A stretch of DNA of 64,000 bases from Candidatus Brennerbacteria bacterium (GTDB taxonomy: Bacteria; Patescibacteriota; Minisyncoccia; UBA6257; GWB1-50-10). The position numbers were made by a program, and so were the translations under genes. Every line of letters starts with the position of its first letter. The first letter of the stretch is position 1. The notes below the pieces were generated by a model. That model worked only from the letters and a program-made list of their open reading frames with translations. It made no database searches and was not told the DNA's origin. The DNA is taken from positions 38,015 to 102,014 of the forward strand of contig JACPEK010000006.1 of the NCBI GenBank assembly GCA_016183535.1, written 5' to 3'. Shown piece after piece: positions 6,199 to 42,504 of the stretch.

Positions 6199-8052
6199 TT
6201 ATTTTTTGATTCGGTGGTCATAGTACCATAGGAACGCGTCGCGTGCCACTGGTATCGTGTTGAGACTCCCCTCCCGCGCGTCTTCGACGAGGATGAGTAA
6301 CGCGAGTTCCGGGTCATCCGCGGGAGCATATCCCGCGAAAAACGCGTTGAGTTTGGCGTTGCCGCTCACCTGCGCGGTGCCGGTTTTTGCCGCAACCGCG
6401 AGGGGAAGATCCGCGAGCGAACGCGCCGTACCGTAGGGAGCCCGCACCACGTCGCGCATGCCCTCCCTCACCTCGGGGATCGCCTCCCCCGCGCGTGCCG
6501 AGAGGTCGGCGCGCACCTCCGACTCGTTCAATATTTTCGTTTCACCCTCTTTCTCCACCGCGCGCGCCACCTGCGGGCGCCAGAGCGTGCCGCCGTTCGC
6601 GATCGCCGCGATGGCATCAAGAAGTCCGAGGGGGGTGACTGTAAGATCGCCCTGCCCGATCGCCACATGATATGTATCCCCCACCCGCCACGGTTCGCCC
6701 CGCGCTGTTTCTTTCCAGGCAGGATCGGGAAGAAACCCTTTTTTTTCTCCGGGAAGATCGATACCCGTCGCTTCTCCCAGCCCGAACCGCTTCCACCACT
6801 CGTTGAGCGTTTCGATGCCGATACCCCGCTGACGCTCGAACCCTCCCGCCACTTCGTAGAAATAGATGTTCGACGATCGCGCGAGTGCGGAACGAATATC
6901 CACCCATCCGTGCGCCTGATTGTCGGGAAAGCGGGTTGGGCGCGAAGAATCGTAGGGGTTCGGCACCTCAATAAAACCGGCGGAAAAAATCCGATCTTCG
7001 GACCCGATTACGCCTTCGCTAAGCGCCGCGATGCCCACCACCGGTTTTATGGTCGAACCTGGATTGTAGGTTCCTTGGAGCGGACGGTTAAAAAGCGGGT
7101 TCCCGGAGGACGTGAGATATTTTGCAACCGCGGCCGGCTCGAAACTCGGAATGGAAACTAAAGCTCTCACTTCGCCGTTCCGGGGATCCATCGCGAGCGC
7201 CGCACCCGCGGTCCTGCCTAATTCGCGGAGGGCGCGCGCGAGACGATCGTAGAGAAATTCTTGAAATTCCCCGTCAATGAAGGTGCGCACCTCCGCGCCC
7301 GCGGTGGGCGCTTCATACCGCGTTTCCCCCTGCGGCTCTCCCCGCGCATTCCGATACGTAACGGTGCGTCCGTCCTTTCCGCGGAGCCACTCGTCGTACG
7401 AAGCCTCGAGCCCCGTACGGCCGATAACGCTCTCGGGACCCAAACGCTCATCGCGCGCGAGATCATCCGTTCCCACGCGACCGGTATATCCCAAAAGGTG
7501 CGCGTACGCGAAGGGATGCGCCGACACGCGCGCGAACGAACGTTCGACACGCACGCCGGGAATCGGGTCCGCGGCCAGCGCGATAAGCGTCTCTCGCGAA
7601 AGACCGTCCGCGAGCACGAGTCGCTCCGAAACATTCCAATCTTTCGCGGCGACGCGGGTTCGGAGATCCGCGGCATCTTCCCCGAAAAGCACGGCGAGAC
7701 GCGCGAGCGCGGCGTTCCGTTCGTCTGAACCGGCGGGAAAATCACGCAGTACGAGCGCCGCGCTCCACGAGGGAACGTTCGAGACAAGCGGCGCACCGAA
7801 CCGATCGCGAATGATACCGCGGGGAGCCGGCTCCACGCGCACATCTGTCATGTTTGCTTCCGCCCGCGCGCGGTAGAAATCGTACTTGAACCCCGCGAGC
7901 GCAAATACTTTGGCGCCCACCGCGACGGCAACCCCGACGGCAATCAAAAGAAAAACCTTGAACGCGCGGTCTCCGAGCGGCACATGGAGGAGCGCGTCCT
8001 GCGCCGCATAATCAGCGAGCACCTCTTCCCATTCAAAGCGCGTTTTTGTCAT
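6199..8052 (-). CDS. mrdA: penicillin-binding protein 2 / peptidoglycan D,D-transpeptidase (MrdA/FtsI family)
   Basis: N-terminal TM, dimerisation domain, STIKP (SxxK) and KTGTAQ (KTG) motifs. Lies immediately downstream of mreBCD. Confidence 0.85.
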   Translation of the reverse strand: MTKTRFEWEEVLADYAAQDALLHVPLGDRAFKVFLLIAVGVAVAVGAKVFALAGFKYDFYRARAEANMTDVRVEPAPRGIIRDRFGAPLVSNVPSWSAALVLRDFPAGSDERNAALARLAVLFGEDAADLRTRVAAKDWNVSERLVLADGLSRETLIALAADPIPGVRVERSFARVSAHPFAYAHLLGYTGRVGTDDLARDERLGPESVIGRTGLEASYDEWLRGKDGRTVTYRNARGEPQGETRYEAPTAGAEVRTFIDGEFQEFLYDRLARALRELGRTAGAALAMDPRNGEVRALVSIPSFEPAAVAKYLTSSGNPLFNRPLQGTYNPGSTIKPVVGIAALSEGVIGSEDRIFSAGFIEVPNPYDSSRPTRFPDNQAHGWVDIRSALARSSNIYFYEVAGGFERQRGIGIETLNEWWKRFGLGEATGIDLPGEKKGFLPDPAWKETARGEPWRVGDTYHVAIGQGDLTVTPLGLLDAIAAIANGGTLWRPQVARAVEKEGETKILNESEVRADLSARAGEAIPEVREGMRDVVRAPYGTARSLADLPLAVAAKTGTAQVSGNAKLNAFFAGYAPADDPELALLILVEDAREGSLNTIPVARDAFLWYYDHRIKK

Positions 8053-9277: not shown

Positions 9278-10309
9278 TCAATCCTTGACTTTCGGCCCGG
9301 GGAAATTATTAAGAAGGTGAGCGTACGCCGGAATATTCTCCGCCACGATCCCCACCCCGCGCACCACGCAAGTGAGCGGATCTTCGACAAGGAGCGCCCG
9401 CACGCCGATTTCTTTCATTAAAAGATCCGCAATGCCGCGGAGGAGCGCGGTGCCTCCGCAGAGATACATCCCGTTCTTGTAGATGTCTCCGGCGAGCTCG
9501 GGCGGCGCCGTTTCAATCATGTCTTTCAGCGCATCTACGATCGCTCTCATGGGCCTTGCAAGCCACAGACGCACCTGGGAATCTTTCACCGACGTTTCGC
9601 GCGGAAGGCCGCTTGCTATGTCGCGCCCGCGCACCACCACCTCGAGTCGTTCACCGGTCGCCATCACGGATCCGACCGCAAGTTTGATTTCCTCGGCGGT
9701 CGGCTCGCCGATCGCAAGTTTGAATTCATCACGCATCCCCCGCACGATTTCCGCATTCAAATAGTCTCCGCCGATCTTGAGGCGCCGCGACACCACGATG
9801 CCGGAGAGGGAGAGGATGGCGGCATCGGTCGTCCCCGCCCCCATGTCAATAATGAGAAACGCCGTCGGCTCGTCGATGGCGAGGCGGATTCCGAACGCCG
9901 CGGCGAGTGGCTGTTCCACGAGATGTACCGGCGAGGCGCCCGATTCCCGGAGAAGATCCTCCACTGATTTGCGTTCCACCTCGGTCAAACTCGTCGGCAC
10001 CGACACCACCGCCTCGGTCGTCCACGACCACGGAAGCTTCTCGCGCTTCAGGAAGCGCTCGAGCATCTCACGCGCCATGTCGAAGTCGGCGATGATGCCG
10101 TGGGTAATGGGGCGAAGTGCGGTAATGTGCGCGGGCGTACGGGCGAGCATTTTCTTCGCTTCGCTTCCCACCGCCACCACGCGGTTCGTGCGGTTGTTAA
10201 ACGCCACGATCGAAGGTTCATTCACCACAAGTCCCACGCCTTTGAGGTATACCCTCGTGAGGTCGGTCCCCAGATCGATGCCGAGCGCTTTTTTTAAATG
10301 GAATGTCAT
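9278..10309 (-). CDS. mreB: rod shape-determining actin homolog MreB
   Basis: The ORF 9278..10438 is trimmed to M44 (MTFHLKKALGIDLGTDLTRVY...), whose ATG overlaps the proS stop (ATGA). Actin-fold motifs GIDLGT and DMGAGTTD are present. Confidence 0.92.
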   Translation of the reverse strand: MTFHLKKALGIDLGTDLTRVYLKGVGLVVNEPSIVAFNNRTNRVVAVGSEAKKMLARTPAHITALRPITHGIIADFDMAREMLERFLKREKLPWSWTTEAVVSVPTSLTEVERKSVEDLLRESGASPVHLVEQPLAAAFGIRLAIDEPTAFLIIDMGAGTTDAAILSLSGIVVSRRLKIGGDYLNAEIVRGMRDEFKLAIGEPTAEEIKLAVGSVMATGERLEVVVRGRDIASGLPRETSVKDSQVRLWLARPMRAIVDALKDMIETAPPELAGDIYKNGMYLCGGTALLRGIADLLMKEIGVRALLVEDPLTCVVRGVGIVAENIPAYAHLLNNFPGPKVKD

Positions 10310-11565
10310 ACGGCGGTGGCTTGTTTGAGGAAAGCGGAGAGCTCCGAGATTTTTACGAGTGCGGCAAGGGCGGCGTCTCTCCGTTTTATTTCCACGGCGC
10401 CGGACGCGCGCGTCCGGTCGCTCGCGACGATTCGCCACGGAATGCCAAGAAGATCGGCGTCGGCAAATTTCTCTCCCGCGGAAACCCCCGCGCGATCGTC
10501 ATAGAGCGTCTCGACGCCTCTCTCGGTAAGTTCCCGATAGACATCGTCCGCGAACACGCGGACGGATTCGTCGCCGGCCTCGACGAGGAGAAGATGCGCG
10601 GAAAACGGCGCCACCGCATCCGGCCACACGAGCCCCCGCTCGTCATGGTGGATCTCGGCGATCGTGCCGATGAGACGCTCCACGCCGATGCCGTAGGAAG
10701 CCATAATAACGGGGTGCGACGCCCCCGTCGGATCCTTGAATACAAGACGGGCGGGTTCCGAGAACCGCGTCCCAAGCTTGAAAATATTGCCGACCTCGAT
10801 CGCCGCTATTCCCTCGAGCGCTCCCGTGCCGCACTTCGGGCACAGATTTCCTTGTTTTTCTTCGGCGATTTCCGCGTTCCGGGCGAACCCGCACCGTCGG
10901 CAAAGCAGGACGAAATCTTCGCCCGCGTCCGCCTCCACCATAAACTCGTGCGAATACTTCGAAAAATCACCCCCCGACGCTTCCGTCACGAGTGCCGTGA
11001 GTCCCGCGCGCTTGAAAATCGAGAGATAAGAATTCTTCACGCGCTCGTAGAATTCTTCAAGGGAAGCAGTGTCGGCATGAAAGCTGTAGAGATCTTTCAT
11101 GGTAAATTCGCGTCCGCGCAAAAGCCCCGATTTGGGACGTTCCTCGTCCCGGAACTTCGTTTGTATCTGATAAACGGCTTTCGGAAGATCCTGATAAGAA
11201 CCGATGACGAATCTTCCGATCTCCGCGACGACCTCCTCGTGCGTGGGTCCGAGTCCCACGTCGCGGCCGCCGTGATCCTTGAATTGATACATCACTTTGG
11301 AGAGCACGTCCCACCGTCCCGTCGCGTCCCACACCGCGCGCGGATGGAGCGCCGGCATGAGCATTTCGGCGCCAAGCTTGTCCATCTCTTCGCGAATGAT
11401 TGCCATCGCTTTCTCGCGCACACGGAACCCCAAGGGAAGCATGGTGTAAACTCCCGCCATGAGCTTATGGATAAAATTTGCGCGGAGAAGCAGTTTTGCA
11501 TTCACCGCCGTTTCATCCTTCGGCGCTTCGCGTTGGGTCTTTAAAAAAAGGGTTGATTGGCGCAT
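10306..11565 (-). CDS. proS: prolyl-tRNA synthetase, bacterial minimal type without the INS editing domain
   Basis: N-terminus LLLRANFIHKLMAGVYTMLPLGFRV; motif-2 region REFTMKDLYSFHAD; anticodon-binding C-terminus. Only 419 aa. Confidence 0.92.
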   Translation of the reverse strand: MRQSTLFLKTQREAPKDETAVNAKLLLRANFIHKLMAGVYTMLPLGFRVREKAMAIIREEMDKLGAEMLMPALHPRAVWDATGRWDVLSKVMYQFKDHGGRDVGLGPTHEEVVAEIGRFVIGSYQDLPKAVYQIQTKFRDEERPKSGLLRGREFTMKDLYSFHADTASLEEFYERVKNSYLSIFKRAGLTALVTEASGGDFSKYSHEFMVEADAGEDFVLLCRRCGFARNAEIAEEKQGNLCPKCGTGALEGIAAIEVGNIFKLGTRFSEPARLVFKDPTGASHPVIMASYGIGVERLIGTIAEIHHDERGLVWPDAVAPFSAHLLLVEAGDESVRVFADDVYRELTERGVETLYDDRAGVSAGEKFADADLLGIPWRIVASDRTRASGAVEIKRRDAALAALVKISELSAFLKQATAV

Positions 11566-14318: not shown

Positions 14319-15335
14319 CTACCGCCGGACGGGATGGAGCAGGGTGCGTTTATAAACGTCGAGATGGCCGAGAATGGTCGCCGTGCCCTTCGCCACACAG
14401 AGAATGGCATCCTCCGCAACGTACGCCGAGACGCCCAGCGTGCGCTTCAAAAATTCGGGAAGGTCGCGGAGTTGGGAGGACCCTCCGGAGAGGATAATGC
14501 CCTTCTCCATGATGTCGGCCGCGAGCTCGGGAGGAGTCACATTGAATACCGACTGAATGGCGTTCCCGATTTCCATGAGGTGGGGATTCACCGCCTCGGC
14601 GATCTCGTTCGAATTCACCACCAGATCGCGCGGGAGCCCCACGCGGAGATCGCGCCCGCGCACTTTCATCTCGAGCCGGTTGCGATTCGATACCGCCGTG
14701 CCGATGCCGATTTTGATGTTCTCGGCGCTCGTTTCCCCGATCGCAAGTCCGTATTTTTTCCTGATGTAGTCCATAATGGCGAGGTCAAAGCGGTTTCCCG
14801 CGACCCGCAAACTTTCCCACGCCACAATGCCGCCAAGCGAAATGACGGCCACTTCCGTGGTGCCCCCACCGATATTCACAATCATATTGCCCTCCGCGGA
14901 GTGGATGGGGATACCGGCGCCGAGGGACGCGAGGAGCGGCTCCTTCACGAGATATACCTCCTTCGCGCCCGCCTCGCGCGCGGCATTCATCACCGCGCGA
15001 TACTCGGTCGAGGTGATGCCCGCCGGCACCGAGATCACCACCTCGGGACGGATGAGGTTCCACGCCCCGATGCTTTTTGCGATGAAGTACTTGAGCATCG
15101 CGCGCGTCACGTAGTATTCCGCAATCACGCCGTCTTTGAGAGGCCGATAGGTCACAATGTCATCGGGCGTACGCCCCACCATTTCCTTCGCCTCCGCGCC
15201 GACCGCGAGCACTTCATGGCCCGGGTTTCGGAGCGCCACCACCGTCGGTTCGTTGATGACGATGCCTCGGTCGGGGAGAAAGACCAGCGTGTTCGTGGTG
15301 CCGAGGTCGATTCCGATTTTGCGGATAAACATCAT
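14319..15335 (-). CDS. mreB: second MreB/Mbl actin-like paralog
   Basis: ORF trimmed to MMFIRKIGIDLGTTNTLVF...; IVNIGGGTTEVAVISLGG phosphate-2 motif. Confidence 0.85.
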   Translation of the reverse strand: MMFIRKIGIDLGTTNTLVFLPDRGIVINEPTVVALRNPGHEVLAVGAEAKEMVGRTPDDIVTYRPLKDGVIAEYYVTRAMLKYFIAKSIGAWNLIRPEVVISVPAGITSTEYRAVMNAAREAGAKEVYLVKEPLLASLGAGIPIHSAEGNMIVNIGGGTTEVAVISLGGIVAWESLRVAGNRFDLAIMDYIRKKYGLAIGETSAENIKIGIGTAVSNRNRLEMKVRGRDLRVGLPRDLVVNSNEIAEAVNPHLMEIGNAIQSVFNVTPPELAADIMEKGIILSGGSSQLRDLPEFLKRTLGVSAYVAEDAILCVAKGTATILGHLDVYKRTLLHPVRR

Positions 15336-15389
15336 TCCTAACCTACCATGTTTTGCGGAAAAACGGAAAGCGCGATAAGGTGGAACGGT

Positions 15390-16724
15390 ATGCATCTCAC
15401 CACGCGACGCATCGTTTTTTACTCGCTCGTCGCTGTATTTTTCCTCGGAGCGGCTTACGCGCTCCTCACGGCGTTCGGCCTCTCGGTAGACCTCAAAGAG
15501 GGCCTCACGCGCACCGGTTCAATTTTCGTCGCGGGCGCGCCGCGTGACGCGACTCTCTTTCTCGACGGCGCGCCGGCGGAAGAAAGTCGCGGCATTATTT
15601 CTGGCGGAACGCTCGTGCGCAATCTTCTTCCGGGGAACTACGAGGTACGCTTCGAGCGCGAGGGCCGCGCGCCGTGGCGCGCGGAACTTCCGGTCATTTC
15701 CGGTCTCGTCACGCGCGCGACGGATCTTTTTCTCTGGCCGCTTGAAGCGAGCGCTTCACCCGTCGTCGCGGACGTCGAGTTGTTCTCGCTTTCCGCCGGC
15801 GCGCCCCTTGTCAAAAATTCCTCCGGCACGCTCATGCTCGGCGACCGCGCGATTCCGGGAAACGAGGTGGTGTATGCCACGAATGACTCGGGCCTGACGC
15901 TCACGCGGAGCGGCAACACAATCTATCTCACGGAGACCGCGCGGGCGCGGAGCGTCACAAACGTAACCGCGCTCTTTCAGTCCCTCAAAGAGCGCGAACT
16001 CGGACTCCCGGGCGCGGTACCCATCGTCAACGCGCGGCCCCATCCCTTCAGTCAGGGAAAACTTATTATTACAACGAAGACCTCGCTCTACCTCCTCGAT
16101 TTGCGGCGCATCTCGCTCGAGCGCCTTGTGACGGTGAGTGCAATCGCCGCGAGCGCATTCACTGGCGATGAGGTATTCCTCGCCGGAGCCGACGGCACGC
16201 TTACCGCGGTGGATCTCGTGTTCAAAACCACGCGCACCGCTCCCTTTACGTCAAGCGCCGTCGCGGCGCTCGCAATCGGCGCCGGCGGCGACATGGTGAT
16301 ATGGAAGACGCCCGAAGGAACGCTTTTTTCTTACGACCGCGTTACGGGCGACACTGTATCGGTCGCCGACAACGCGGGCGAGTTTTCCGTGAGTCCGGAC
16401 GGACTCCGCCTTGCGGCCGTGGAAAGAAACGCCGTCGCGATCATCGCGCTCGCGCCATACACCGCCGACGCCTTCGTCGCGCGAGGATATCGAACTCCGG
16501 TATGGGAAGGTTCATCGACGCCAAAAAAAATATCCTGGAACCCGACGCTCCCCCGCTACCTCTTTTTCCTCGCGGACAACCGGCTCATCGTAGCCGAGAT
16601 CGGCTTCTACGGCGAACGGAACTCCTACGCGCTCGCGGAAAACGTTATGGATTTCGCGCTCGCGGGCTACACTGCGTACGTTCTCAAAACCGACGGCGCG
16701 CTTATAACGCTTTCGCTCGAATAA
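15390..16724 (+). CDS. membrane-anchored hypothetical protein with a PEGA-like domain followed by a beta-propeller-like region
   Basis: Start set at MHLTTRR. One TM, then the PEGA-like segment FVAGAPRDATLFLDGAPAE...GNYEVRFEREG. Confidence 0.4.
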   Translation: MHLTTRRIVFYSLVAVFFLGAAYALLTAFGLSVDLKEGLTRTGSIFVAGAPRDATLFLDGAPAEESRGIISGGTLVRNLLPGNYEVRFEREGRAPWRAELPVISGLVTRATDLFLWPLEASASPVVADVELFSLSAGAPLVKNSSGTLMLGDRAIPGNEVVYATNDSGLTLTRSGNTIYLTETARARSVTNVTALFQSLKERELGLPGAVPIVNARPHPFSQGKLIITTKTSLYLLDLRRISLERLVTVSAIAASAFTGDEVFLAGADGTLTAVDLVFKTTRTAPFTSSAVAALAIGAGGDMVIWKTPEGTLFSYDRVTGDTVSVADNAGEFSVSPDGLRLAAVERNAVAIIALAPYTADAFVARGYRTPVWEGSSTPKKISWNPTLPRYLFFLADNRLIVAEIGFYGERNSYALAENVMDFALAGYTAYVLKTDGALITLSLE

Positions 16725-20349: not shown

Positions 20350-20463
20350 TTAACCTTGCCTCTGTTTGTGTTTCTTATTCTCGCAAATGACCCGCACCCG
20401 ACCCTTGCGGCGGACGACTTTGCATTTCATGCAGATCTTTTTTACCGATGCGCGGACTTTCAT
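20350..20463 (-). CDS. rpmJ: 50S ribosomal protein L36
   Basis: Hand-translated as [37 protein letters not shown] (37 aa, CxxC..C..H zinc ribbon). Absent from the ORF track because it is shorter than 60 aa. Confidence 0.9.
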
Positions 20464-20557: not shown

Positions 20558-20779
20558 TTACAGTCTCCGCACAATGCGCCCTCGCGTGAGATCGTGGGGG
20601 CTCATTTCCACCACCACGGTGTCGCCCGGAATCACGCGAATGCGATTGATCTTCATCTTACCGCCAAGGTGGGCAAGCACGGGCGCGCCCCCTTCCTTGA
20701 GCGCAACCCGGAACATGAGTCCCGGAAGAGTTTCCTCCACCACGCCTTCGGCTCGTATCGTGCTCGATGTTTCAGGCAT
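20558..20779 (-). CDS. infA: translation initiation factor IF-1
   Basis: S1-like OB fold; [32 protein letters not shown]. Confidence 0.93.
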
Positions 20780-20852
20780 TCCCTGTGATAGGTGTGCGGT
20801 TCAAATATAAGAAAAACCAAAAGAAGTGTCAATCCCGCCGCTTTCCCGCATT

Positions 20853-22319
20853 CTATTCCACTGTCACTTCTATCTTCGTCTCATCGGTCGGCACCGAGCG
20901 CACGAAAAACGGCGAGAGTGATACTTTGGCGGCCTCCACGCCCGGGACGGCGAGCACCGCCGCCTTAAGGTCCGCTTCGCCTTTCCCCGTGACGCTCGCG
21001 CGGAATGCGTCCGCGTTAAACGGCGCGGTAAAAACTCCCGCACCGTTCACGGGAAATGTGAGCGTCCGTTTCGCGAAATCGGGGGTGCTGGTGCCGACCG
21101 TATAGGAGAAATCCTTCGCGACGAGTTCTTTGGGGAGTGCGCGCGCCGCCGTTGCGACGAGCGCCTCCCGCAACATCGGATCCTCGAACACGATCTGTTC
21201 CATCACCGCCTCGCCGAAGAGATGAAAGGCATGCGGATCCTCCCCGTCCTGCGAAATATTTTCTTCGACAAGCGTTACCCGCCGGCTTCCCGGGAGCGCG
21301 GTGAAGCGATCCGAGAGGATAATGAGGAATTGGCTCTCAAGCGCGCCGGTCAGGGCTTCCATGAGTTTATTCCGCGCGTCCGCAAGTTCCGTCGTTGAAG
21401 GTTTCGCCCGCTCCCCGATAAAACCGCCTTTTATGCCCGATTTCGTTTCGGCGTAGAACCCGTCATAGCGCGGCGTGCTCCTGAAACCGGGGATGCGCCA
21501 TCCCGATGACGCGGGAAGGTTGTAGACCTCGCCCGCTTCCTCCGCCGTCACCGGCGCCTCGACGGACGAGGCGGTGATACGGCCGCCCTCCACTCTCGCG
21601 CCCGGCACCGTCACCTGCCGGTCGAGACGGAATATTTTTTTGTCGGGCGATTCAAACCGCGTGTTGCGCACCAACGTCTGCGGCGCGGAGCCGTACGAGT
21701 TATAGACGATGAGCACGCCGGTCGCTTTTGCCGACACCGTTTCCGTATCCCGCGCGGCGAAGGGAAGCGTGAGATTTGCGCGTGCTTCGAGAGCTTCGCC
21801 GGGTACCACCACCGCGGAGGGCGCGCTCACGGTACCGGGATCCGCGGCCGCGACGACGGTTTCTTTAAACGTCATGGGATATTTTTTCATCGTGAGCGTG
21901 ATCACCGCTTTCGGAAGCGTAAACCATGCGCCGGCCCCCGCCGCGATCAAGATGGCGAGTACCCCGACTCCTACGCGAAGCACGCGACGCCGGCCCCGAT
22001 ACCGTCCCGTGAATCCCGCCCGTCCGACCGGCGAATTTGCCGCTTGTGTCGCTTCCACTCCGGGAGCGGGCCCTCCATCAATCCGCATTTCACGAATCGG
22101 CGGGATAAGAAAAACTGGTTCTTCCTTCGGCTCCGGAGGCGCGCTTCTCTTTGTTTCGATGGGCTCCGATTCCTTCTTTTTTGGCGCTTTCCGCGCCGGC
22201 GAAATTTCCTTCCTTACTTCCCCGTCCAAACTTTGTTTGCTCGCCACGGCCTTGGCGGAGGAAGGACGACGGGGAACAATATCGGAAATCTTTCTTTTTA
22301 ACTCTACCATAAGAGCCAT
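20853..22319 (-). CDS. hypothetical membrane-anchored protein (488 aa), translationally coupled to the upstream ATPase (TAATG)
   Basis: ORF trimmed to MALMVELKRK.... K/P/E-rich cytoplasmic N-region, one TM (VLRVGVGVLAILIAAGAGAWF), then a large extracytoplasmic domain. Confidence 0.55.
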   Translation of the reverse strand: MALMVELKRKISDIVPRRPSSAKAVASKQSLDGEVRKEISPARKAPKKKESEPIETKRSAPPEPKEEPVFLIPPIREMRIDGGPAPGVEATQAANSPVGRAGFTGRYRGRRRVLRVGVGVLAILIAAGAGAWFTLPKAVITLTMKKYPMTFKETVVAAADPGTVSAPSAVVVPGEALEARANLTLPFAARDTETVSAKATGVLIVYNSYGSAPQTLVRNTRFESPDKKIFRLDRQVTVPGARVEGGRITASSVEAPVTAEEAGEVYNLPASSGWRIPGFRSTPRYDGFYAETKSGIKGGFIGERAKPSTTELADARNKLMEALTGALESQFLIILSDRFTALPGSRRVTLVEENISQDGEDPHAFHLFGEAVMEQIVFEDPMLREALVATAARALPKELVAKDFSYTVGTSTPDFAKRTLTFPVNGAGVFTAPFNADAFRASVTGKGEADLKAAVLAVPGVEAAKVSLSPFFVRSVPTDETKIEVTVE

Positions 22320-23650
22320 TATACCCCAGGACGCGGCGTCGCATACCGCGCGCGGGAGGATGCCACGATCGCGTCGCGGTGAGAACCTGCCGGCAGAGGC
22401 AACGCGCGGAGCGTCTCCGCGGAAAACGGATCGTAGGTCTCGCCGTCGATCGTCATTTTGATGTAGAACGAGCCGGTCCCGAGGTTGATCATGTCCTTTG
22501 CCTTGAACACGGGGGTCATTTCTTCCTCCAAGCGAACCGCATCGCCGCCGCTCGCGCGGAACACCACAACACACCCCATCGTGCCGAGAATCGCGGCTTG
22601 AAGGCGAGGAGTGAGTTGTTCGAGATATTGATGGGAAAGCGAAAGGCAGACGCCGTATTTTCGCGCTTCGGAGAGGAGATTCTCGAGTGTCTCCGTGGCG
22701 AGACCCTGAAACTCGTCGAGGTAGACGTAAAAATCTCTCCGCCTCGGATCCGCTCCGTTTGTCCGCATCATGCCGGCTTGCTTCAACTTCGCCACCACAA
22801 GTGCGCCGAGGAAATTCGCGTTGTGCTCCCCGAGATTGCCCCGCGCGAGATTCACCAAAACAATGTGCTCCTGCGCCATAAGCGATTTAAAATCAATCGT
22901 GTTCCTCCCCTGTTCAAACATGTTCCGCACAAGAGGATGGAGCGTGAACTGGCTTAATTTGGTGACAAGCGGAAGCACGGCATCGCCCTCGAAACGTCGG
23001 GACCATTCCGGAAACTCGTCCGCCCAAAAACGCCGCACGAATTCGTCTTGCACTTCTTTCACCACCGCCGCGCGATACGCGCCATCGGTGAGAAGCGACA
23101 CAAATCCTCCCATGGTGGCATGCGGGTAATCGAGGAGCGCAAGACAGGCAAACCGGAAGACGTGTTCAAGGCGGGGCGTCCAGTTCACGCCGAACTGTTT
23201 TTCCATAATCTCGATCAAACTCTGCGCGAACGTATGCGTGAGTTCGCGCGGAACGTCGGCGAGCGGGTTCCAGCCGACGGGAAATGCCGTGTCCGACGGA
23301 TCAATCACACACACCTGCCCGATCCGTTCCTTCGGTATCGAATCGAGGAGCGCGCCCACGAGATCCCCGTGAAAATCGACCGCACAAAACCCGTACCCGT
23401 GGGCGGCATCCTGGCGCGCGAGCAATTCAAAAAACTTCGATTTTCCCGCTCCGCTTTTCCCCACCGCATAGAGGTGGCGGCGGCGGTCAGCACGTTGAAT
23501 GCCAAAAACAAACCGCTTCTCCTCGATACCCGTCACATAGTTCGTGCGGCCGACGAACGAGCACTCCTCGGGGCGCACTTTCCCGAGCACGGGAAGCTCG
23601 GGCGGCGGCGGCGCCGTTTTTACGAATTGAATTCTCTCGGTCGCCGGCAT
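22319..23650 (-). CDS. P-loop ATPase of the VirD4/TraD/TraG type IV coupling-protein family (FtsK-HerA superfamily), soluble form without TM segments
   Basis: Walker A LYAVGKSGAGKSKF; Walker B FYVYLDEFQ; downstream EARKYGVCLSLSHQYLEQL, which resembles the T4CP Q/S motif region. Confidence 0.7.
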   Translation of the reverse strand: MPATERIQFVKTAPPPPELPVLGKVRPEECSFVGRTNYVTGIEEKRFVFGIQRADRRRHLYAVGKSGAGKSKFFELLARQDAAHGYGFCAVDFHGDLVGALLDSIPKERIGQVCVIDPSDTAFPVGWNPLADVPRELTHTFAQSLIEIMEKQFGVNWTPRLEHVFRFACLALLDYPHATMGGFVSLLTDGAYRAAVVKEVQDEFVRRFWADEFPEWSRRFEGDAVLPLVTKLSQFTLHPLVRNMFEQGRNTIDFKSLMAQEHIVLVNLARGNLGEHNANFLGALVVAKLKQAGMMRTNGADPRRRDFYVYLDEFQGLATETLENLLSEARKYGVCLSLSHQYLEQLTPRLQAAILGTMGCVVVFRASGGDAVRLEEEMTPVFKAKDMINLGTGSFYIKMTIDGETYDPFSAETLRALPLPAGSHRDAIVASSRARYATPRPGV

Positions 23651-23659
23651 ATCGTCGCA

Positions 23660-24196
23660 CTAAGAAGGGAGCGCGCCAAGCTCTCGCAAGAAGGACTCAT
23701 AGATTTTGAGCGCTTCTTCGGCGGCGTTCGCGTCAATACCGAAATCCGGCGCGTGGACCAGTTCGTTCCGCATGCGGTGCGCCCGCCACAAACGGTCAAG
23801 CCCAGGATAGTCGGCCGCATCCAGTTGTTCCAAGCGGTCGGCCATGTGCTCGCCCGAAAAACCCATTTGCTTCAAGGCATCGTCCACGCATTTGTCGGCT
23901 TCAATGACGGCGACGGTGTAGGATTGGGGAGGCGCGGCGGCGGCGCGGCCGACAATACGCGCCCACCGCTCGCGAAACGCTTTCTGATCAAGAGAGGGTC
24001 GACGAGAAAGCGCGGCGGCGGCGCGCATAAAAGGAGGGCGAAACTCCGACGCCTTTCTTATAAGCCACACGAGGCCCGCGAGAAGTGCAATATCAAGAAC
24101 GATAAACACGATCCGGACAACGAAAAGTGCGTCCGCCCACGGCGCGTGAACGATAAGTCGCGCGAGATTTTCGAGATTTTTGATAAGCGCGTCCAT
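23660..24196 (-). CDS. small membrane protein (178 aa), hypothetical
   Basis: One or two TM helices (IVFIVLDIALLAGLVWLI) plus a soluble C-terminal domain. The stop overlaps the upstream gene. Confidence 0.45.
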   Translation of the reverse strand: MDALIKNLENLARLIVHAPWADALFVVRIVFIVLDIALLAGLVWLIRKASEFRPPFMRAAAALSRRPSLDQKAFRERWARIVGRAAAAPPQSYTVAVIEADKCVDDALKQMGFSGEHMADRLEQLDAADYPGLDRLWRAHRMRNELVHAPDFGIDANAAEEALKIYESFLRELGALPS

Positions 24197-24198
24197 GG

Positions 24199-25587
24199 CT
24201 ACTGAAACTTTTCAATTTCTTCCTCCTCGCCGAAGATGGCGAGGCCCGCGGGCGGCCCTGCGCGCCGGCTTTCGGTGCGCCGGAGGTGCGGCGCCGTCAA
24301 CACCACCGCGGTCGGCGGATGGAACACCGTCGCGATCCCCTTCACCGACATGAAAAACCGTTCCGATTTAAAGTTCGAGTGGTAACGGTGCGAAGTTATG
24401 AATTTCCCCGCCCACGTTTCGGGCGGCACTTCCCGCATCCGGTAATTCCACAGGAGCCGCTCCTGGCGATAGCGGAGACGCGTTTTCGGAAACACATACG
24501 GCTTCACCCACGGATCGGTTTTGGTGGCGGTGGGCTTGTTCGCCTTGAAATTGTTCAGGTCGAGCGCGGTGAATTGGTTGAACGCCCCGAGCGCGCCGCG
24601 CGCCGGCGGCCCCTTCGGCGCGGATTCGGGCATAAAGTGAATAATCCTGACAAGGGTGAGGAACGCCGGTTTCGAAAGGTTTTCTTCCACCGCTTTCAGT
24701 ATGTCGGTGTGGCCCGGAGAACGCGCGACCGTCACTTCCTTACTCCCTCCTTCCTCCTCGACGGCGATAGTGGTCGGAGTCTTGAGTTTTTCGAGAAAAT
24801 CCTTGAATCCGTCTCTCCAGTCGGCCGCCGCGGGCGCGAGAAGCAACTGCACACCCACCGTTTCGTCCTTCGGCACTTTCCCCAACACCTCAAGGAACGT
24901 GGAAATGGGATCGAATTGTTTTTCTTCGGCGATGTTTTCAAACCGATCGTAGGTTCTGATCGGGTAGGCGGCTTCCCGCGCGAGCACCATCTCGGTTCCC
25001 CACACCTTCATGCGACGGTGTGCGAGCTCTTCCTGATTTTTCGGGAGCCCGCCGACGTAGTCCTCCACCTCCCTCACCTCCAAATCGGGGTAGAAAGAAT
25101 AGAGCGCCGCCTCGACCACACCCCGCATGCCGGCGTTCATGCGGATGAAAAATCGCGCCTCACCGCCGAAGCTCACGAGTTCGAGCGCGAAAATTCTCGT
25201 GATTTCCCCGTCGAGATATTTTTCTTTGAACGTGCCCGGCGCATTGCGGAGCGCGTGCACCGCCATGAGCACCTCCTCCATCGCCTGCGGACTCTTTTTC
25301 ACCTCTCGCGGGATGCGAAGTTCGAGCAATACGTATTCCTCTTTCCGCTTGAACCGCTCCTGCCGCACAAACAACCAAAACGATTCGAAGATGCCGAAGA
25401 GAAAGAAAAAAAGGATAAGAGGCCACGCATAGAGGAAAAAATTCCGAAGGATGATCCGGACGGCGTCAAAAAATGCGTAGACGATCCACGCCCCGACGCC
25501 GACGAAAAATAGAAAAACCCACACCTCCTCCTTCCCGAAAAACTCGGCGAGGAATTCTATGACGTGGTTGAAAGTTTCCTTGATCAT
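24199..25587 (-). CDS. polytopic membrane protein (462 aa) with a large soluble domain, hypothetical
   Basis: Three N-terminal TM helices, then a roughly 350-aa domain. It is the first gene of the 4-gene module ending with the T4CP-like ATPase. Confidence 0.55.
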   Translation of the reverse strand: MIKETFNHVIEFLAEFFGKEEVWVFLFFVGVGAWIVYAFFDAVRIILRNFFLYAWPLILFFFLFGIFESFWLFVRQERFKRKEEYVLLELRIPREVKKSPQAMEEVLMAVHALRNAPGTFKEKYLDGEITRIFALELVSFGGEARFFIRMNAGMRGVVEAALYSFYPDLEVREVEDYVGGLPKNQEELAHRRMKVWGTEMVLAREAAYPIRTYDRFENIAEEKQFDPISTFLEVLGKVPKDETVGVQLLLAPAAADWRDGFKDFLEKLKTPTTIAVEEEGGSKEVTVARSPGHTDILKAVEENLSKPAFLTLVRIIHFMPESAPKGPPARGALGAFNQFTALDLNNFKANKPTATKTDPWVKPYVFPKTRLRYRQERLLWNYRMREVPPETWAGKFITSHRYHSNFKSERFFMSVKGIATVFHPPTAVVLTAPHLRRTESRRAGPPAGLAIFGEEEEIEKFQ

Positions 25588-25667
25588 TGCAAATCATCTT
25601 CATTGTAGCGCATGCAATCGGCAAAACCCAACGAAAAAGCCCCGACGTTTCGTCGGGGCTTTTCCCG

Positions 25668-26696
25668 CTACGCTTCTTTGACGCGATACCGCCCGTCGTC
25701 AAGCCGCGCGAAATGCTTGCGGTTTTGGAGCGCAAGAAGCACGGTGTTTTCTTTCAAAAACCGCTGTTCGTTCACGAGTCCCAATACGCGCTTTGCGTCC
25801 ATGGGGCCGTTCCGTTTTAAAAGCTTGGCGATCACCTCGCGCACCGTACCAGATTCATAGCCGTGTTCCCCGAGGCCATAGATGCCGCGACCCACAAGGA
25901 CGAACCGCGGATCTTTGATAAGCTCGTTGTGCACGGTCTGCATGTGGGTCGGGTGCGCCGAGAGGCGGTGTTTTGCGATGTGTTTCGCGATGTCGCGGAA
26001 GTGGAGCGGCGTGCCGTGTTTGCGAAGCACGAGGTACGCGCGGTCGCGCACGGTTTTAGGCTCGATCTCCGGCCACTCGCGAAGCCCCACATCGCCGAAC
26101 ACGTTCATGCCGATATGTTTCGGAATCGAGAGCCAGTGACACGCCACCATGTCCTTGCAAAACGCGAGGTGGGCCTTTTCATCGATTACCTTTTTGGTTC
26201 CGGCTTTCTCGAAAAACTCGGTGATTTTCTCGACGAAGTTCAAAAACTTCTTCTCCGTTGCCATACTCGAAACCCAATATGCGTGCATGAGGTCGGTCTC
26301 CGGCACATACCGCGGCTCACCCGCCACGCGGAGAATAAAGCGGATCTTCTCGGGGAGATTTTTCGCGTTCCGGTCATTTTTGAGAAAAGCTTCGCGAAGA
26401 TCCTCAATGAAGCGGTCGTCGCGTCGCGCGCCGCCCACGCTCTCAAGGTGCCGCTTCACGCTTTCAATAAAAAACTTCGCCTGATCCCGCACAAGCGGCG
26501 CGAGTTTTTTCACGGTCTGCGCTTCGATCTGGCGCACCCGTTCGCGCGTGAGATTGAGCTCGTCGCCTATTTCCTGAAGCGTCGCTTTGCTCCCCCCTTT
26601 GAGGGCGTATCTCCCCGCGACAATTCTGCGCGGCTTGGGCGCGAGCGTGGAGAGAACGTTTTCGAGAACCGATTCGATGGATTGCATGATTTTCAT
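25668..26696 (-). CDS. sigma-70 region-4 HTH plus HARE-HTH-like domain protein (putative transcription factor)
   Basis: TLQEIGDELNLTRERVRQIEAQTVKKL resembles sigma region 4.2. The C-terminal half resembles HARE-HTH (HFRDIAKHIAKH...PRFVLVGRGIYGL), with a second winged-helix-like unit after it. Confidence 0.55.
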   Translation of the reverse strand: MKIMQSIESVLENVLSTLAPKPRRIVAGRYALKGGSKATLQEIGDELNLTRERVRQIEAQTVKKLAPLVRDQAKFFIESVKRHLESVGGARRDDRFIEDLREAFLKNDRNAKNLPEKIRFILRVAGEPRYVPETDLMHAYWVSSMATEKKFLNFVEKITEFFEKAGTKKVIDEKAHLAFCKDMVACHWLSIPKHIGMNVFGDVGLREWPEIEPKTVRDRAYLVLRKHGTPLHFRDIAKHIAKHRLSAHPTHMQTVHNELIKDPRFVLVGRGIYGLGEHGYESGTVREVIAKLLKRNGPMDAKRVLGLVNEQRFLKENTVLLALQNRKHFARLDDGRYRVKEA

Positions 26697-26747
26697 CGTA
26701 CCATAGAGAATGAATGGCGTCAATTACCCTTATCCCCATGCGGCGAG

Positions 26748-36373: not shown

Positions 36374-37897
36374 TTAGCGGCACGTTTGAACAGTTGTATT
36401 GACTCCATATCTTCCGATAAGACCAACATTGCAATCAACGTCGCCATTATAAAATCTCCATCCCGTAGGGGCAACCACAAGAGGTCCTGGAAACGAATTT
36501 CCGCACGCCACGGCATTTGCGTCAAACGTACCGCCGATATTTTCCGACGGGCAATAGAGGAAACCGACGTTTGGCGAGCACGACCCGCCATCACTTTGTT
36601 TTCCGGTAGTGCCGAATGGAGTAGTTGAAAGACTTGCCGTGCAATAATAGTTGGTCGCGGTTTCGGATTTTGTGGCAACGCTGTCACAGTTATAATCGAA
36701 ACTTCCGTCGCCGCGGTTCGTGCTGTAATAGGCGGTCTGCCCGGGTTTCGCGTTCGCGTTCGAATCGTAGCAATCGTTCGTGTTAATGATGCTCCCCTGC
36801 GCAATCTGGTTATAACTGCCGCTTGAGTTCTTGTAGTAGGTGCGGCCGCTCACCGTGGTCACACTCCCCACGCACGCACTCGCCGCGCCAGACATCGAAT
36901 AGCCGTCCTGATCGCCGTCGGTCGCGACCGACTGATTTTGGTAGATATTGGCGTTTGCGTCGCTACAATCCCCGCCTGTCGTCACATAAGGCGAACCCGC
37001 GCCGACCGACACGCACGCAATCGTCGCGCTTCCATACCCGTCACCGTCGTTGTCTACATACCGGTCAGCGGCCACGCTCGCATTCGTATCATTGCAGTCG
37101 TACACGTTCCCGATCGCAGTGAAAGTGAGACGCTGACTCCAGGTAAGCAGATAGTTTCCGCCTTTTATTCGGTAATAAGTTCTCCCGCCCGCATACGAGG
37201 GAGCGCCGACACACACCGATCCCACAGGGGAAGCACTTGGCGTATAGGTGTAACCGTCCTGATCCTCGTCCCAATCCCATTCGACTGGTACGTTTTGATA
37301 GACCGAGGAGGAAGTATCGTCGCAATCGGTTCCGGACGAAGAAGCGGAATATCCCGAGGGGAGCGAGGAGCCGGAACACACGGACTGGGCCGATCCCGTG
37401 GTGTACGCGTCACCGTCCCCGTCGGGGTAGCCAGTAAGGTACTGCCACGTCGAAGCGCTCGAGTCATTACAGTCGCCCGCCTCGCTCCGGGTGCTCCTCC
37501 TCTGATAGGAGCTTGGCTGGGCATCCTGTGCCAGCATGTCGGTGCTATTTAGCGAGTACCCATCGTTATCCGCGTCTTTAATCCAAAGATTTGTCTGCTT
37601 GAGCTGGGCACCGCTCGCGGAAAGCGCGATCGTGCCGTTCACCGTGATGCTCTTTCCGGCATTCCATGCGATGGTCTGGTTCGCGTTTACGGTGAGCGTT
37701 ACGCCGGCGTTCACGGTGATGTTGCCGTTGTCCACACCATTCACCGAACCGGTAAACGCGCAGTTCGAGTTGACGATGTGATCCCCCCCAAGCGAGGGAG
37801 AACAATTCGCGAAGGCGCGCGGCGCAACGGAAAACCCCGCAAGCAAGATTGCTCCAAATATCCAAAATCTTAATGACGAATTAAAAACTGTAGACAT
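36374..37897 (-). CDS. secreted Cys-rich repeat protein with about 5 MopE-like putative metal-binding repeats (DC[ND]D...DxDGDGY...C)
   Basis: Signal peptide present. Repeats include GDCNDSSAS...PDGDGDAY..C, TDCDDTSSS...DEDQDGYTY..C, YDCNDTNAS...DNDGDGYGS..C and GDCSDANAN...DGDQDGYSM..C. Confidence 0.55.
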   Translation of the reverse strand: MSTVFNSSLRFWIFGAILLAGFSVAPRAFANCSPSLGGDHIVNSNCAFTGSVNGVDNGNITVNAGVTLTVNANQTIAWNAGKSITVNGTIALSASGAQLKQTNLWIKDADNDGYSLNSTDMLAQDAQPSSYQRRSTRSEAGDCNDSSASTWQYLTGYPDGDGDAYTTGSAQSVCSGSSLPSGYSASSSGTDCDDTSSSVYQNVPVEWDWDEDQDGYTYTPSASPVGSVCVGAPSYAGGRTYYRIKGGNYLLTWSQRLTFTAIGNVYDCNDTNASVAADRYVDNDGDGYGSATIACVSVGAGSPYVTTGGDCSDANANIYQNQSVATDGDQDGYSMSGAASACVGSVTTVSGRTYYKNSSGSYNQIAQGSIINTNDCYDSNANAKPGQTAYYSTNRGDGSFDYNCDSVATKSETATNYYCTASLSTTPFGTTGKQSDGGSCSPNVGFLYCPSENIGGTFDANAVACGNSFPGPLVVAPTGWRFYNGDVDCNVGLIGRYGVNTTVQTCR

Positions 37898-37899
37898 AA

Positions 37900-38388
37900 T
37901 TAAAATGCCGGCTGGAAACTAAGCACCACTCGCGACGCCTCGCCCCCGTCCGTTTTTTCAGCTGACGAACCTTTTGCCTCAATCGCAGCTTGATAAACCC
38001 TCTCCCGCGTGTCCGCGACCGTCCACGATCCCTCCCACACGCCGTCCGCGGCACTCCCCTCCTTCAAGGCGAGCGGAAATGGATGTTCACCCCCATCCAT
38101 AATCATGGTAACCTGCACCGATTCCACGAACCCCGCGTATCTCACCTTCACGCGCACACGCTGTTCCACTCCTTCCGCCACGCTCCCCAACGGATCAAAG
38201 CTCGCTTCGTAAATCTCGGGACCGGATTGATTACCACTCACGAAATAGGTATCGCGCTCCGGAAGCGGCGGAGCGGCGTTTCGTTCAGACAAAACCGGCG
38301 ACGTACCGCCGCGTCCGAAAAGAAAGATCGCCGCGCCGAGCGCAAGCGCGATAACGACCAAAATAATATTCTTCCGATCCACGTTCAT
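37900..38388 (-). CDS. small N-terminally anchored secreted protein, hypothetical
   Basis: One TM (IILVVIALALGAAIFLF), then about 130 aa of soluble sequence. Overlaps the neighbouring genes by 4 nt. Confidence 0.45.
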   Translation of the reverse strand: MNVDRKNIILVVIALALGAAIFLFGRGGTSPVLSERNAAPPLPERDTYFVSGNQSGPEIYEASFDPLGSVAEGVEQRVRVKVRYAGFVESVQVTMIMDGGEHPFPLALKEGSAADGVWEGSWTVADTRERVYQAAIEAKGSSAEKTDGGEASRVVLSFQPAF

Positions 38389-39542
38389 CGCTTCAAGAGC
38401 GTATCAAGGTTAAACCCTTCATGCGCGCCCGCCGCCGCGTTCGTCCACTCGCGCCAATCGAAGCGCGGGGCGGTCAGGCGGTAGCTCACTTCCAGCGAGC
38501 AATTTTCAATTTTCAATTTACAATTTTCAAAAAGAGAGGCGTAGATGGCGATGGTTTTGTTTTTATAATCTTTCTCATACCACGTCTTGCCGTCGAAGTT
38601 CGGCGTAAGAAGCACGGCAAGATTTGCAAATCCTTCTCCTTCAAGATTCGCCGCTTTCGCAAAAAGCCACAAGTCGGAACCCTCTTCGGCGGTTTTGAAA
38701 TCAAGAACGGCGGTTGGTAGTTGGTCGTTGGTCGTTGGTAGTTTAATAACGCCGGTGGTTTCTTCCTTCACCCCCGTCATGCCGGACACATAGGTGGCGT
38801 AGCGCTCTCCGCCGATCGTGTAAACCGGGTCAATCGTGCCCGCGTCGATTTTCCCCGACCCGCCGCCGAAGACCGCAACCAAGCTCGTCGTCGTGTTCCC
38901 CACGGACAAGAGGGCGGTTGGCGTCGAGGTTGCGATCCCGATCCTCCCCGTCGACGTGGCGATGGTGAGATAATCCGTCGAGCCGCTCCGCCGGATCACG
39001 AAGTTATTGACGTCGTTCGGGCCGTAGAACCATTGCTCGGTGCCGGAGGTGTCCTTCACGACGAGACCGCGATAATTTGTTGAGAGTCCCGAGAGGGTAA
39101 CAAGAGGGCCGGATGATCCGTCATACACATGGAACCGCGTGGCGGGACTCGCGGTGCCGACGCCGGCGCGCGCGTTCGTCGCGTCCACAAAGAGCACCGT
39201 GTTGGTGTTCCCCGATTCCTGAAACGTGTAGTTGCCCTTCCCCGCGATGGAGCCGAACACGCCCGCGGACACCTGGCCCGCCGAAACCGATGAGGCGCCC
39301 GCGCTCGTCTGGGAGGTGCCGTCCCCGAACTTCAGCGTACTATCCACATAGAGCACCCCCGCCGCCTGCGGCGTCGTGGTGCCGACCGAAAGACCGCCTA
39401 AAACGGTGGTGGTCGAGGCGTTCTGGATGCGGTAGGTGCCGCCGAAATCAAAATCGTTCTGCACACTGATCGCGTATACGAAAGACGCGAGTCCGAGGAA
39501 GAGTACAAGTGCGGCCGCGGCGAGATAGATTTTCGAGGTCAT
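38385..39542 (-). CDS. surface repeat protein, paralog of 42505..45450 (shared [RN]xG[IV][GA]T[ST]xP repeats and a conserved C-terminal domain ending RFDWREW)
   Basis: ORF trimmed to MTSKIYLAAAALVLF. The C-terminal roughly 130 aa, IDPVYTIGGERYATYVSG...YRLTAPRFDWREWT, aligns with the C-terminus of the 981-aa protein. Confidence 0.55.
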   Translation of the reverse strand: MTSKIYLAAAALVLFLGLASFVYAISVQNDFDFGGTYRIQNASTTTVLGGLSVGTTTPQAAGVLYVDSTLKFGDGTSQTSAGASSVSAGQVSAGVFGSIAGKGNYTFQESGNTNTVLFVDATNARAGVGTASPATRFHVYDGSSGPLVTLSGLSTNYRGLVVKDTSGTEQWFYGPNDVNNFVIRRSGSTDYLTIATSTGRIGIATSTPTALLSVGNTTTSLVAVFGGGSGKIDAGTIDPVYTIGGERYATYVSGMTGVKEETTGVIKLPTTNDQLPTAVLDFKTAEEGSDLWLFAKAANLEGEGFANLAVLLTPNFDGKTWYEKDYKNKTIAIYASLFENCKLKIENCSLEVSYRLTAPRFDWREWTNAAAGAHEGFNLDTLLKR

Positions 39543-39592
39543 AGGTTGCTTGGTGGTATTATACCATTCCCTTCTTTCCTTCTTTTTTATTT

Positions 39593-40210: not shown

Positions 40211-40232
40211 TGTACCACACCGCGCATACCGA

Positions 40233-41750: not shown

Positions 41751-41867
41751 TTATGACTTCAGTTCTCCATATGACATATGAGTCCTAGAGAACTTATCGG
41801 TCTTATTATAGAGAAACCCGCGGCGCGGCGCGGGTTTTTTTCGCGGTCTTCCATGACTTATTTAGTC

Positions 41868-42452: not shown

Positions 42453-42504
42453 GATGTTATTATAGCAAACCGATCTTGCGCCCTTTAGATGATTGGTCTT
42501 TTGT

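Follow-up and report, generated by a model that had tools for sequence, protein, structure and literature searches.

A putative membrane-tethered coupling protein split over three genes, with a VirB4-like membrane subunit and a HEPN-like partner, upstream of infA in Candidatus Brennerbacteria

A 64-kb stretch of the chromosome of Candidatus Brennerbacteria (Patescibacteria), here called the window and the frame of reference for all position numbers, carries four co-directional genes, designated A, B, C and D, next to the infA ribosomal-protein gene cluster (Table 1). C is a soluble P-loop ATPase related to the type IV coupling proteins (T4CPs), A is a membrane protein with a VirB4-like predicted fold, and B is a small membrane protein with a putative HEPN-like domain. 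Comparison with relatives indicates that A-B-C is a conserved set in Parcubacteria-type ultra-small bacteria and that D is only a local companion. The three proteins very probably form a membrane-tethered motor of the coupling-protein type, in which A would be the anchor or platform, C the ATPase and B an accessory subunit. The best explanation of the locus as a whole, with a probability of roughly 0.5, is that A-B-C is a coupling protein, most likely serving a type IV secretion system (T4SS) of the monoderm type, and that D is a neighbour. All four open reading frames (ORFs) are real genes, with strong homologues for each.

C is assigned by sequence to the VirD4/TrwB/TraD class, not to FtsK, because the Pfam models TrwB_AAD_bind (PF10412; 33.4 bits, cut-off 20.5) and TraG-D_C (PF12696; 24.1 bits, cut-off 22) match above threshold, FtsK_SpoIIIE (PF01580) gives no match at E values up to 0.1, and the best solved relative in a profile search of the C family against the PDB is TrwB (E = 0.0085), with no VirB4 found. 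A first-pass annotation of this DNA had already proposed the resemblance to T4CPs, quoting the Walker A (GKSGAGKS), Walker B (YVYLDEFQ) and T4CP-like (ARKYG...SHQYLEQL) motifs, all of which are present. Of the models it had suggested for a search, T4SS-DNA_transf (PF02534) reaches 16.6 bits, under its cut-off of 20.1, and DUF87 also stays under its own; the FtsK or other housekeeping assignment that it had named as a risk did not emerge. The Pfam scan detected in C no gamma-type DNA-recognition domain and no match to the VirB4-class models AAA_10, CagE_TrbE_VirB and TraC_F_IV, while the Embleya VirB4, serving as a control, matches AAA_10, TraC_F_IV and P-loop_TraG. As a single sequence C matched no PDB chain, and hhalign comparison of its profile with TrsK (VirD4 class) and TrsE (VirB4 class) of pSK41 does not discriminate, both aligning around Walker B. 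By hydropathy C has no hydrophobic or transmembrane (TM) segment, as the annotation had stated. The family is large (2098 matches) and highly conserved: the best 120 homologues, from Brenner-, Jorgensen-, Lipton- and Paceibacteria-type metagenome-assembled genomes (MAGs), are 57-69% identical to C, and an alignment of 45 sequences has a mean column identity of 76%. Invariant in these 45 are G64, K65, S66 and K70 of Walker A, D312 and E313 of Walker B, the pair H340-Q341, and R365.

A had been described as a three-TM protein; hydropathy shows instead two TM-like hydrophobic segments (22-40 and about 50-74) after an amphipathic helix. In the AlphaFold2 model (pLDDT 83), N-terminal helices at residues 2-18, 20-38 and 40-82 are followed by a cytoplasmic alpha/beta domain of ~380 residues with a fold like that of the VirB4 N-terminal domain. 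When the model was searched with Foldseek, eleven TrwK chains ranked first (probability 0.96-1.0). The structural matches are of the VirB4 type and no other P-loop ATPase is listed among them, so it is the non-ATPase N-terminal domain of VirB4 that A matches. In the R388 system, the N-terminal domain of VirB4 (residues 15-400) is wrapped by VirB3, a protein of three helices of which two are TM (PMC9259494). According to the model, the fold of A combines that of VirB3 with that of the VirB4 N-terminal domain, in the element order of a single-chain fusion of the two, a likeness missed by the first-pass annotation. In sequence no similarity to VirB4 is detectable, a search of the A profile against PDB chain sequences giving only a chance match. 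A 100%-identical entry (P0121) and nearly all A homologues carry a precomputed match to PF26449 (DUF8128), a family for which a literature search returned no papers; our own Pfam scan of A was without a match. Homologues number 331 in a word-indexed search, and an exhaustive profile search recovered 2726 cluster representatives (50% identity) at E values up to 1e-3.

A and C look like the two parts of a split "long" coupling protein, because single-chain proteins with A-like and C-like regions exist in a Parcubacteria contig, on an Embleya plasmid and in SPO1-like phages. The Parcubacteria ORF (L029:12938-14737) runs to the end of its contig, 6 kb downstream of a split A-B-C set, and joins in one chain a TM segment, a domain like that of A (DUF8128-like) and an ATPase like C. 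Its residues 1-358 are collinear with A (E = 5.5e-24 with a clean A hidden Markov model, HMM; 3e-7 by blastp) and the part from residue 385 is collinear with C (blastp E = 1e-22). The 824-position profile phrog_5156, whose members include SPO1 gp27.4, phage G gp156 and CP-51, matches A over profile positions 76-202 (E = 1.5e-5) and C over positions 396-770 (E = 1e-46). In SPO1-like and other large Bacillus phages the phrog_5156 proteins are ~900 aa long and resemble A in their N-terminal half and C in the ATPase part; gp27.4 itself (L067:2744-5464) has no TM segment. The 812-aa Embleya T4CP aligns with 97% of the length of C at 32% identity, and its gene lies between those for a VirB4-class ATPase and a relaxase-like protein, with PrgI/VirB3 and NlpC/P60 genes nearby. 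Both the Embleya protein and gp27.4 give weak collinear matches to the A HMM N-terminal to Walker A. The case for fusion rests on the L029 ORF, the PHROG profile and targeted hmmsearch rather than on hhalign, in which the A profile reached a probability of ≤2% against the Embleya T4CP, gp27.4 and TrsD.

The point of fission can be read from the sequences: two stretches, GPPAGLAIFG in the tail of A and APPPPELPVLG in the head of C, each align with the one AAPPANL...G linker that the fused protein contains. The two genes also travel together. In a synteny sample of 59 non-redundant related loci, all apparently Parcubacteria-type, 50 had enough upstream DNA to be scored; in 41 of these the two genes share a strand, with A upstream of C, and in 36 they are within 1 kb of each other. 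Because of this co-conservation, the fusions and the shared linker, there is good reason to regard A and C as halves of one machine. The suggestion that a neighbour supplies the missing membrane anchor in trans is thus upheld, the neighbour being very probably A, given its co-conservation with C, the fused chains elsewhere and its VirB3/VirB4-like fold. No relatives of A turned up when viral contigs were scanned. C-like proteins also occur on plasmids of Actinomycetota, Bacillota and haloarchaea. On a Sulfitobacter mediterraneus plasmid a lone 395-aa C homologue (L065:6935-8122; 37.5% identity) lies amid transposases with no A-like neighbour, which suggests horizontal spread of the ATPase alone.

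B is a small membrane protein, as had been noted, with one TM segment at about 25-43 by hydropathy. The positively charged stretch that follows this segment places the C-terminal domain in the cytoplasm. This cytoplasmic part is likely a HEPN-like domain of ~105 aa, predicted to be all-helical with four helices, a feature that the first-pass annotation missed. Among 26 B homologues W78, D101, G115, R121, H140, R143, N144 and H148 are invariant. The family motif AHRxRNxLVH, present in the window protein as R143-N144-E-L-V-H148, fits the HEPN pattern Rx4-6H in its canonical form R-N-x3-H, and B is a possible RNase. In a Pfam scan of the same 26 homologues, HEPN_Swt1 matched 9 (best E = 8.2e-5), Hypoth_Ymh 5 and HEPN_RiboL-PSP 5; the ten members with bit scores reach 15-18 bits against gathering cut-offs of 25-27.5, all below, and the matches cover the motif-bearing C-terminal helix. 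The B of the window gave no Pfam match. B adjoins C in 31 of the 50 loci and is missing where A abuts C directly, for example in Sungbacteria-type genomes. None of the papers found describes a HEPN protein that is anchored in the membrane and paired with a T4CP-like ATPase.

D is of another kind. Its N-terminal 110 residues are K/P/E-rich and disordered, and since the RYRGRRR stretch and the TM segment (about 113-135) come after them, this part is cytoplasmic. The first-pass annotation was right about the single TM segment and the cytoplasmic side; what it took for a tail is the N-terminus. The extracytoplasmic part is beta-rich, with a GlxA/Baseplate_J-like barrel by fold and profile similarity. 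A 573-aa GTG-started ORF was considered as the true D and rejected, the homologues beginning at the internal Met. Only 33 homologues were found. D adjoins C in one of 48 non-redundant loci, namely the closest relative (L001), which has the same four-gene order. In the nine other loci that carry D, 1-5 kb of other genes separate D from C and D always abuts infA; in another Brennerbacteria MAG the locus tags put D 12 genes from C. Because D is adjacent to C in a single locus and otherwise stays by infA, it is best regarded, on this synteny, as a lineage-specific surface-protein neighbour and no conserved partner of A-B-C. The proposal that the four genes make one module therefore does not hold: of the flanking membrane proteins, A and B are co-conserved with the ATPase and D is not.

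In many relatives other genes stand near C. A family of proteins of 550-600 aa that carry treble-clef zinc fingers at both termini (PF13451, PF23477) is found in 29 of the 48 loci, its gene lying directly 3' of C in 18. There are 1-4 full-length tandem copies, plus partial ORFs at some loci (examples are L003:9873-11534, L005:9454-11211, L008:10190-16933, L016:9900-16982 and L029:6896-10379). These proteins, which have no PDB or NCBIfam relatives and are absent from the window, could be cargo or adaptors of the ATPase. A second soluble ATPase, paralogous to C and 530-765 aa long, is encoded a few kb from C in 21 loci (for example L005:13552-15231 and L053:11504-13666), although not in the window. 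It carries a C-terminal extension with a CxxC-x17-CxxC treble-clef domain, and in L005 its gene lies two genes upstream of ComEC. No relaxase or VirB4-type T4SS was linked to C in the flanking DNA analysed from the relatives.

These features lead to the following model. C would be a hexamer-forming motor ATPase of the VirD4/TrwB class. A would hold it at the membrane by a helical hairpin like that of VirB3 and offer it a cytoplasmic platform like the VirB4 N-terminal domain, the part played by the N-terminal half of the same polypeptide in the related "long" coupling proteins. B would place its HEPN-like domain, a possible RNase, at the same face of the membrane, and the three proteins would assemble physically. 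At the cytoplasmic membrane the complex would most probably use ATP to receive and translocate substrates, passing a cargo of protein or nucleoprotein to a conduit whose genes lie elsewhere. The likeliest conduit would be the relaxase-less, monoderm-type T4SS of most Patescibacteria. Service to a T4SS is favoured by analogy, because the nearest fused homologue stands in a conjugative T4SS context and relaxase-less T4SSs are widespread in Patescibacteria; it is put at slightly under an even chance.

Several points weigh against a coupling protein in the service of a T4SS. Among the ORFs scanned in the 64-kb window no VirB4, VirB6 or relaxase was found. The best NCBIfam matches of C, VirD4-like CD1115 and TraD, are far under the equivalog cut-offs, and the matches of A to the Embleya and SPO1 proteins are weak (16-17 bits; hhalign probability 1-2%). 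T4CP-like genes are present in 96% of Patescibacteria genomes, VirB4 in 80%. In S. epibionticum the T4CP homologue was reported as non-essential while the T4SS genes were essential (PMC12102498). The high conservation of C and its housekeeping neighbourhood are more in keeping with a core function of the cell than with an accessory derived from conjugation. The main rival, held to be unlikely, is a T4SS-independent housekeeping translocase that would move DNA or RNA across or at the membrane, for example in uptake with ComEC for nucleotide scavenging or in FtsK-like segregation, with the HEPN domain of B cutting the substrate. The DNA pumps of the FtsK/HerA superfamily include the T4CPs (PMC12857230), and, besides the extreme conservation of C, its fixed surroundings and the wider spread of T4CP-like genes than of VirB4, the ATPase paralogue near ComEC in L005, the invariant RNxxxH motif of B and weak NCBIfam matches to CedD, an archaeal DNA-translocating ATPase, speak for it. 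However, the CedD match covers the P-loop region only, at 20.8 bits against a cut-off of 600; the gene near ComEC is that of the paralogue rather than that of C; S. epibionticum tolerates the loss of ComEC; the matches behind the HEPN assignment stay under threshold; and C has neither an FtsK_SpoIIIE match nor a gamma-type DNA-recognition domain. A bolder form, less probable again, makes A-B-C a Patescibacteria-wide (at least Parcubacteria-wide) T4SS-independent translocon, in which RNA or DNA from the host would be drawn to the membrane face by the VirD4-like motor, docked on the anchor that resembles VirB3 and the VirB4 N-terminal domain, for processing by the tethered HEPN nuclease B. If true, it would be a new import and processing machine for nucleotide scavenging in organisms unable to make nucleotides.

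The remaining explanations carry little weight. The first-pass annotation had proposed that all four proteins together form a minimal, self-contained secretion or uptake apparatus. The tight co-directional packing, the one-base overlap of C and D, the lack of a terminator before infA, the large external domain of the membrane protein D and the identical order in L001 agree with this, but the gene order in the other loci, where D, if present, keeps to infA and, in 18 of the 48, a zinc-finger gene directly follows C in its stead, largely refutes it. The D family is also small, 33 matches against 2098 for C. A self-contained apparatus is not supported, since an A+B pair contributes just three TM helices and none of the genes encodes a polytopic channel; the proposal is very improbable. 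No better odds are given to a conflict or defence system with C as NTPase sensor or motor, B as HEPN RNase effector and A as membrane partner. HEPN domains are common as abortive-infection effectors, related fused proteins occur in phages, and C matches the PADLOC model mad8 (E = 6.9e-10), for which a literature search on the MADS protein returned only irrelevant papers. Yet the module is near-universal among the sampled loci, holds a fixed position between secDF and the ribosomal-protein genes and shows no sign of an island-like composition; C has 76% column identity, and some lineages retain A and C but have no B. Least credible is a decayed remnant of an integrated conjugative element upstream of infA. 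The plasmid-borne C-like proteins of Actinomycetota, Bacillota and haloarchaea are in its favour; no integrase, relaxase or VirB4 was found among the scanned ORFs of the window, the G+C content equals that of the flanks, the gene order is shared by several candidate phyla and none of the catalytic residues varies.

Table 1. Genes and signals at the A-B-C-D locus (positions in the 64-kb window)
Feature	Position	Strand	Description
A	25587..24199	-	462 aa; DUF8128 membrane subunit, proposed anchor/adaptor of the ATPase
B	24196..23660	-	178 aa; small single-pass membrane protein, HEPN-like
C	23650..22319	-	443 aa; soluble T4CP-class P-loop ATPase
D	22319..20853	-	488 aa (485 aa in the NCBI annotation, start at M4); type II single-pass
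S	25668..26723	-	351 aa; sigma-70 region 4 (residues 23-74) and HARE-HTH (224-284)
Intrinsic-terminator-like hairpin	25633..25665	-	15-bp stem and T run, between S and A
Near-consensus sigma-70-type promoter	20804..20832	-	TTGACA-17-TATATT, 11/12 matches, between D and infA
infA	20779..20558	-	downstream of D
rpmJ	20463..20350	-	after infA; then rpsM, rpsK, rpsD, rpoA, rplQ

The coordinates, sizes and junctions of the four genes agree with the first-pass annotation, as does their place directly upstream of the cluster from infA to rplQ. The gaps are 2 nt between A and B and 9 nt between B and C; at the C-D junction (ATAATGG) the TAA stop and the ATG start have one base in common, which is the TAATG coupling described before. 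The hairpin between S and A appears to mark the 5' boundary of an A-B-C-D transcription unit and the predicted promoter the start of the infA-rpmJ-rpsM unit; inspection of the junction between D and infA revealed no terminator. The block had been thought to be inserted where secY-adk-map normally follow infA. These genes usually lie 5' of infA, not 3', and no SecY-like ORF is present among the scanned window ORFs of at least 400 aa. The order secD-secF-S-A-B-C is kept in Brenner-, Jorgensen-, Giovannoni-, Sung- and Paceibacteria-type genomes, and because it recurs across the sampled lineages the block is best read as ancestral synteny, not as an insertion. A recent insertion or mobile element was likewise rejected on this synteny and on composition, the G+C content of the block (0.57-0.62) being the same as that of its flanks. 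S is conserved directly upstream of A in 35 of 46 loci, syntenic with A-B-C, though in the window a strong terminator hairpin stands between S and A; a transcription factor specific to Patescibacteria is one possible role for it.

Elsewhere the window is housekeeping in character, with genes for aminoacyl-tRNA synthetases, MreB (two copies), PBP2, DnaB, GroEL, RelA/SpoT and UvrC. One MreB (9278-10438, minus strand) matches Pfam MreB_Mbl; the second (14319-15395, minus strand) is recognized by its sequence and by the MreB_Mbl annotation of its L001 counterpart. A PBP2-type transpeptidase (6199-8052, minus strand) lies in the same 10-kb stretch as both. Six co-directional ORFs at 36374-45450 (minus strand; 507, 162, 416, 205, 505 and 981 aa), each with one N-terminal hydrophobic segment, look like secreted or surface-anchored proteins; the four largest (416-981 aa) were scanned and gave no Pfam match. 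A 585-aa ORF at 57749-59506 (minus strand) with two Thy1 (ThyX) matches could encode a flavin-dependent thymidylate synthase in duplicated or fused form.

The lack of a T4SS gene near C in the DNA scanned is typical of Patescibacteria. Quinonero-Coronel et al. (2025) surveyed 3035 Patescibacteria genomes and found 5713 VirD4-type homologues in 2918 of them, only 148 of these homologues being near virB4; VirB4 itself was present in 2417 genomes, and the authors noted that exaptation cannot be excluded (PMC12102498). There are about two VirD4-like genes per genome, almost never beside a T4SS, and their role has been left open in the literature (PMC12102498). The locus analyzed here gives one such orphan T4CP a concrete proposed architecture: a motor split from a DUF8128 anchor that resembles VirB3 and the VirB4 N-terminal domain, a HEPN-like partner and, in most relatives, tandem zinc-finger proteins. 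The papers found contain no description of a DUF8128 partner, of the split architecture or of a HEPN-like subunit. The orphan thereby becomes testable with respect to complex formation, cargo identity and nuclease activity. The wider class of "long" coupling proteins, distributed among actinobacterial plasmids, SPO1-like phages and the candidate phyla radiation and having an N-terminal half that looks like VirB4, bears on the divergence of VirB4 and VirD4.

Among known systems, the VirD4, TrwB and TraD T4CPs share with C the nucleotide-binding domain with its inserted helical domain, the Walker A and B motifs and a downstream HQ. Unlike them, C has no N-terminal TM domain and no relaxase or T4SS nearby, and unlike the plasmid T4CPs it is chromosomal, housekeeping-like and far more conserved, scoring far below the NCBIfam TraD and VirD4 cut-offs. 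Its proposed anchor is a separate protein, with a large domain that is absent from TrwB-type proteins. In the AlphaFold2 model, A corresponds to VirB3-VirB4 (TrwM-TrwK) in having three N-terminal helices, two of them TM, and then the fold of the VirB4 N-terminal domain in one chain, and A and C together give the order VirB3, VirB4 N-terminal domain, ATPase. The identity, however, is 8%, with no match in the PDB sequence search, and the partner ATPase C is of the VirD4 and not the VirB4 class. The type VII (ESX) proteins EccE-EccC have a structural score far below that of VirB4, and no other ESX components are present. The HEPN proteins of the Swt1-like, Hypoth_Ymh/Abi-like and RiboL-PSP groups resemble B in the R-N-x3-H motif, which is invariant in the B family, with matches only in some members of that family. 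TrsD/TrsE of pGO1 and pSK41 (MPF-FATA) are an earlier case in which a VirB4-N-terminal-like protein has a gene of its own, immediately 5' of that for the ATPase (PMC12102498), although A has no detectable sequence similarity to TrsD and TrsE is of the VirB4 class. In the "long" coupling proteins (the 812-aa Embleya T4CP, the phrog_5156 proteins and L029:12938-14737) an A-like half and a C-like ATPase make one chain, in Embleya within a conjugative T4SS cluster; in the window the two halves are separate genes with B between them.

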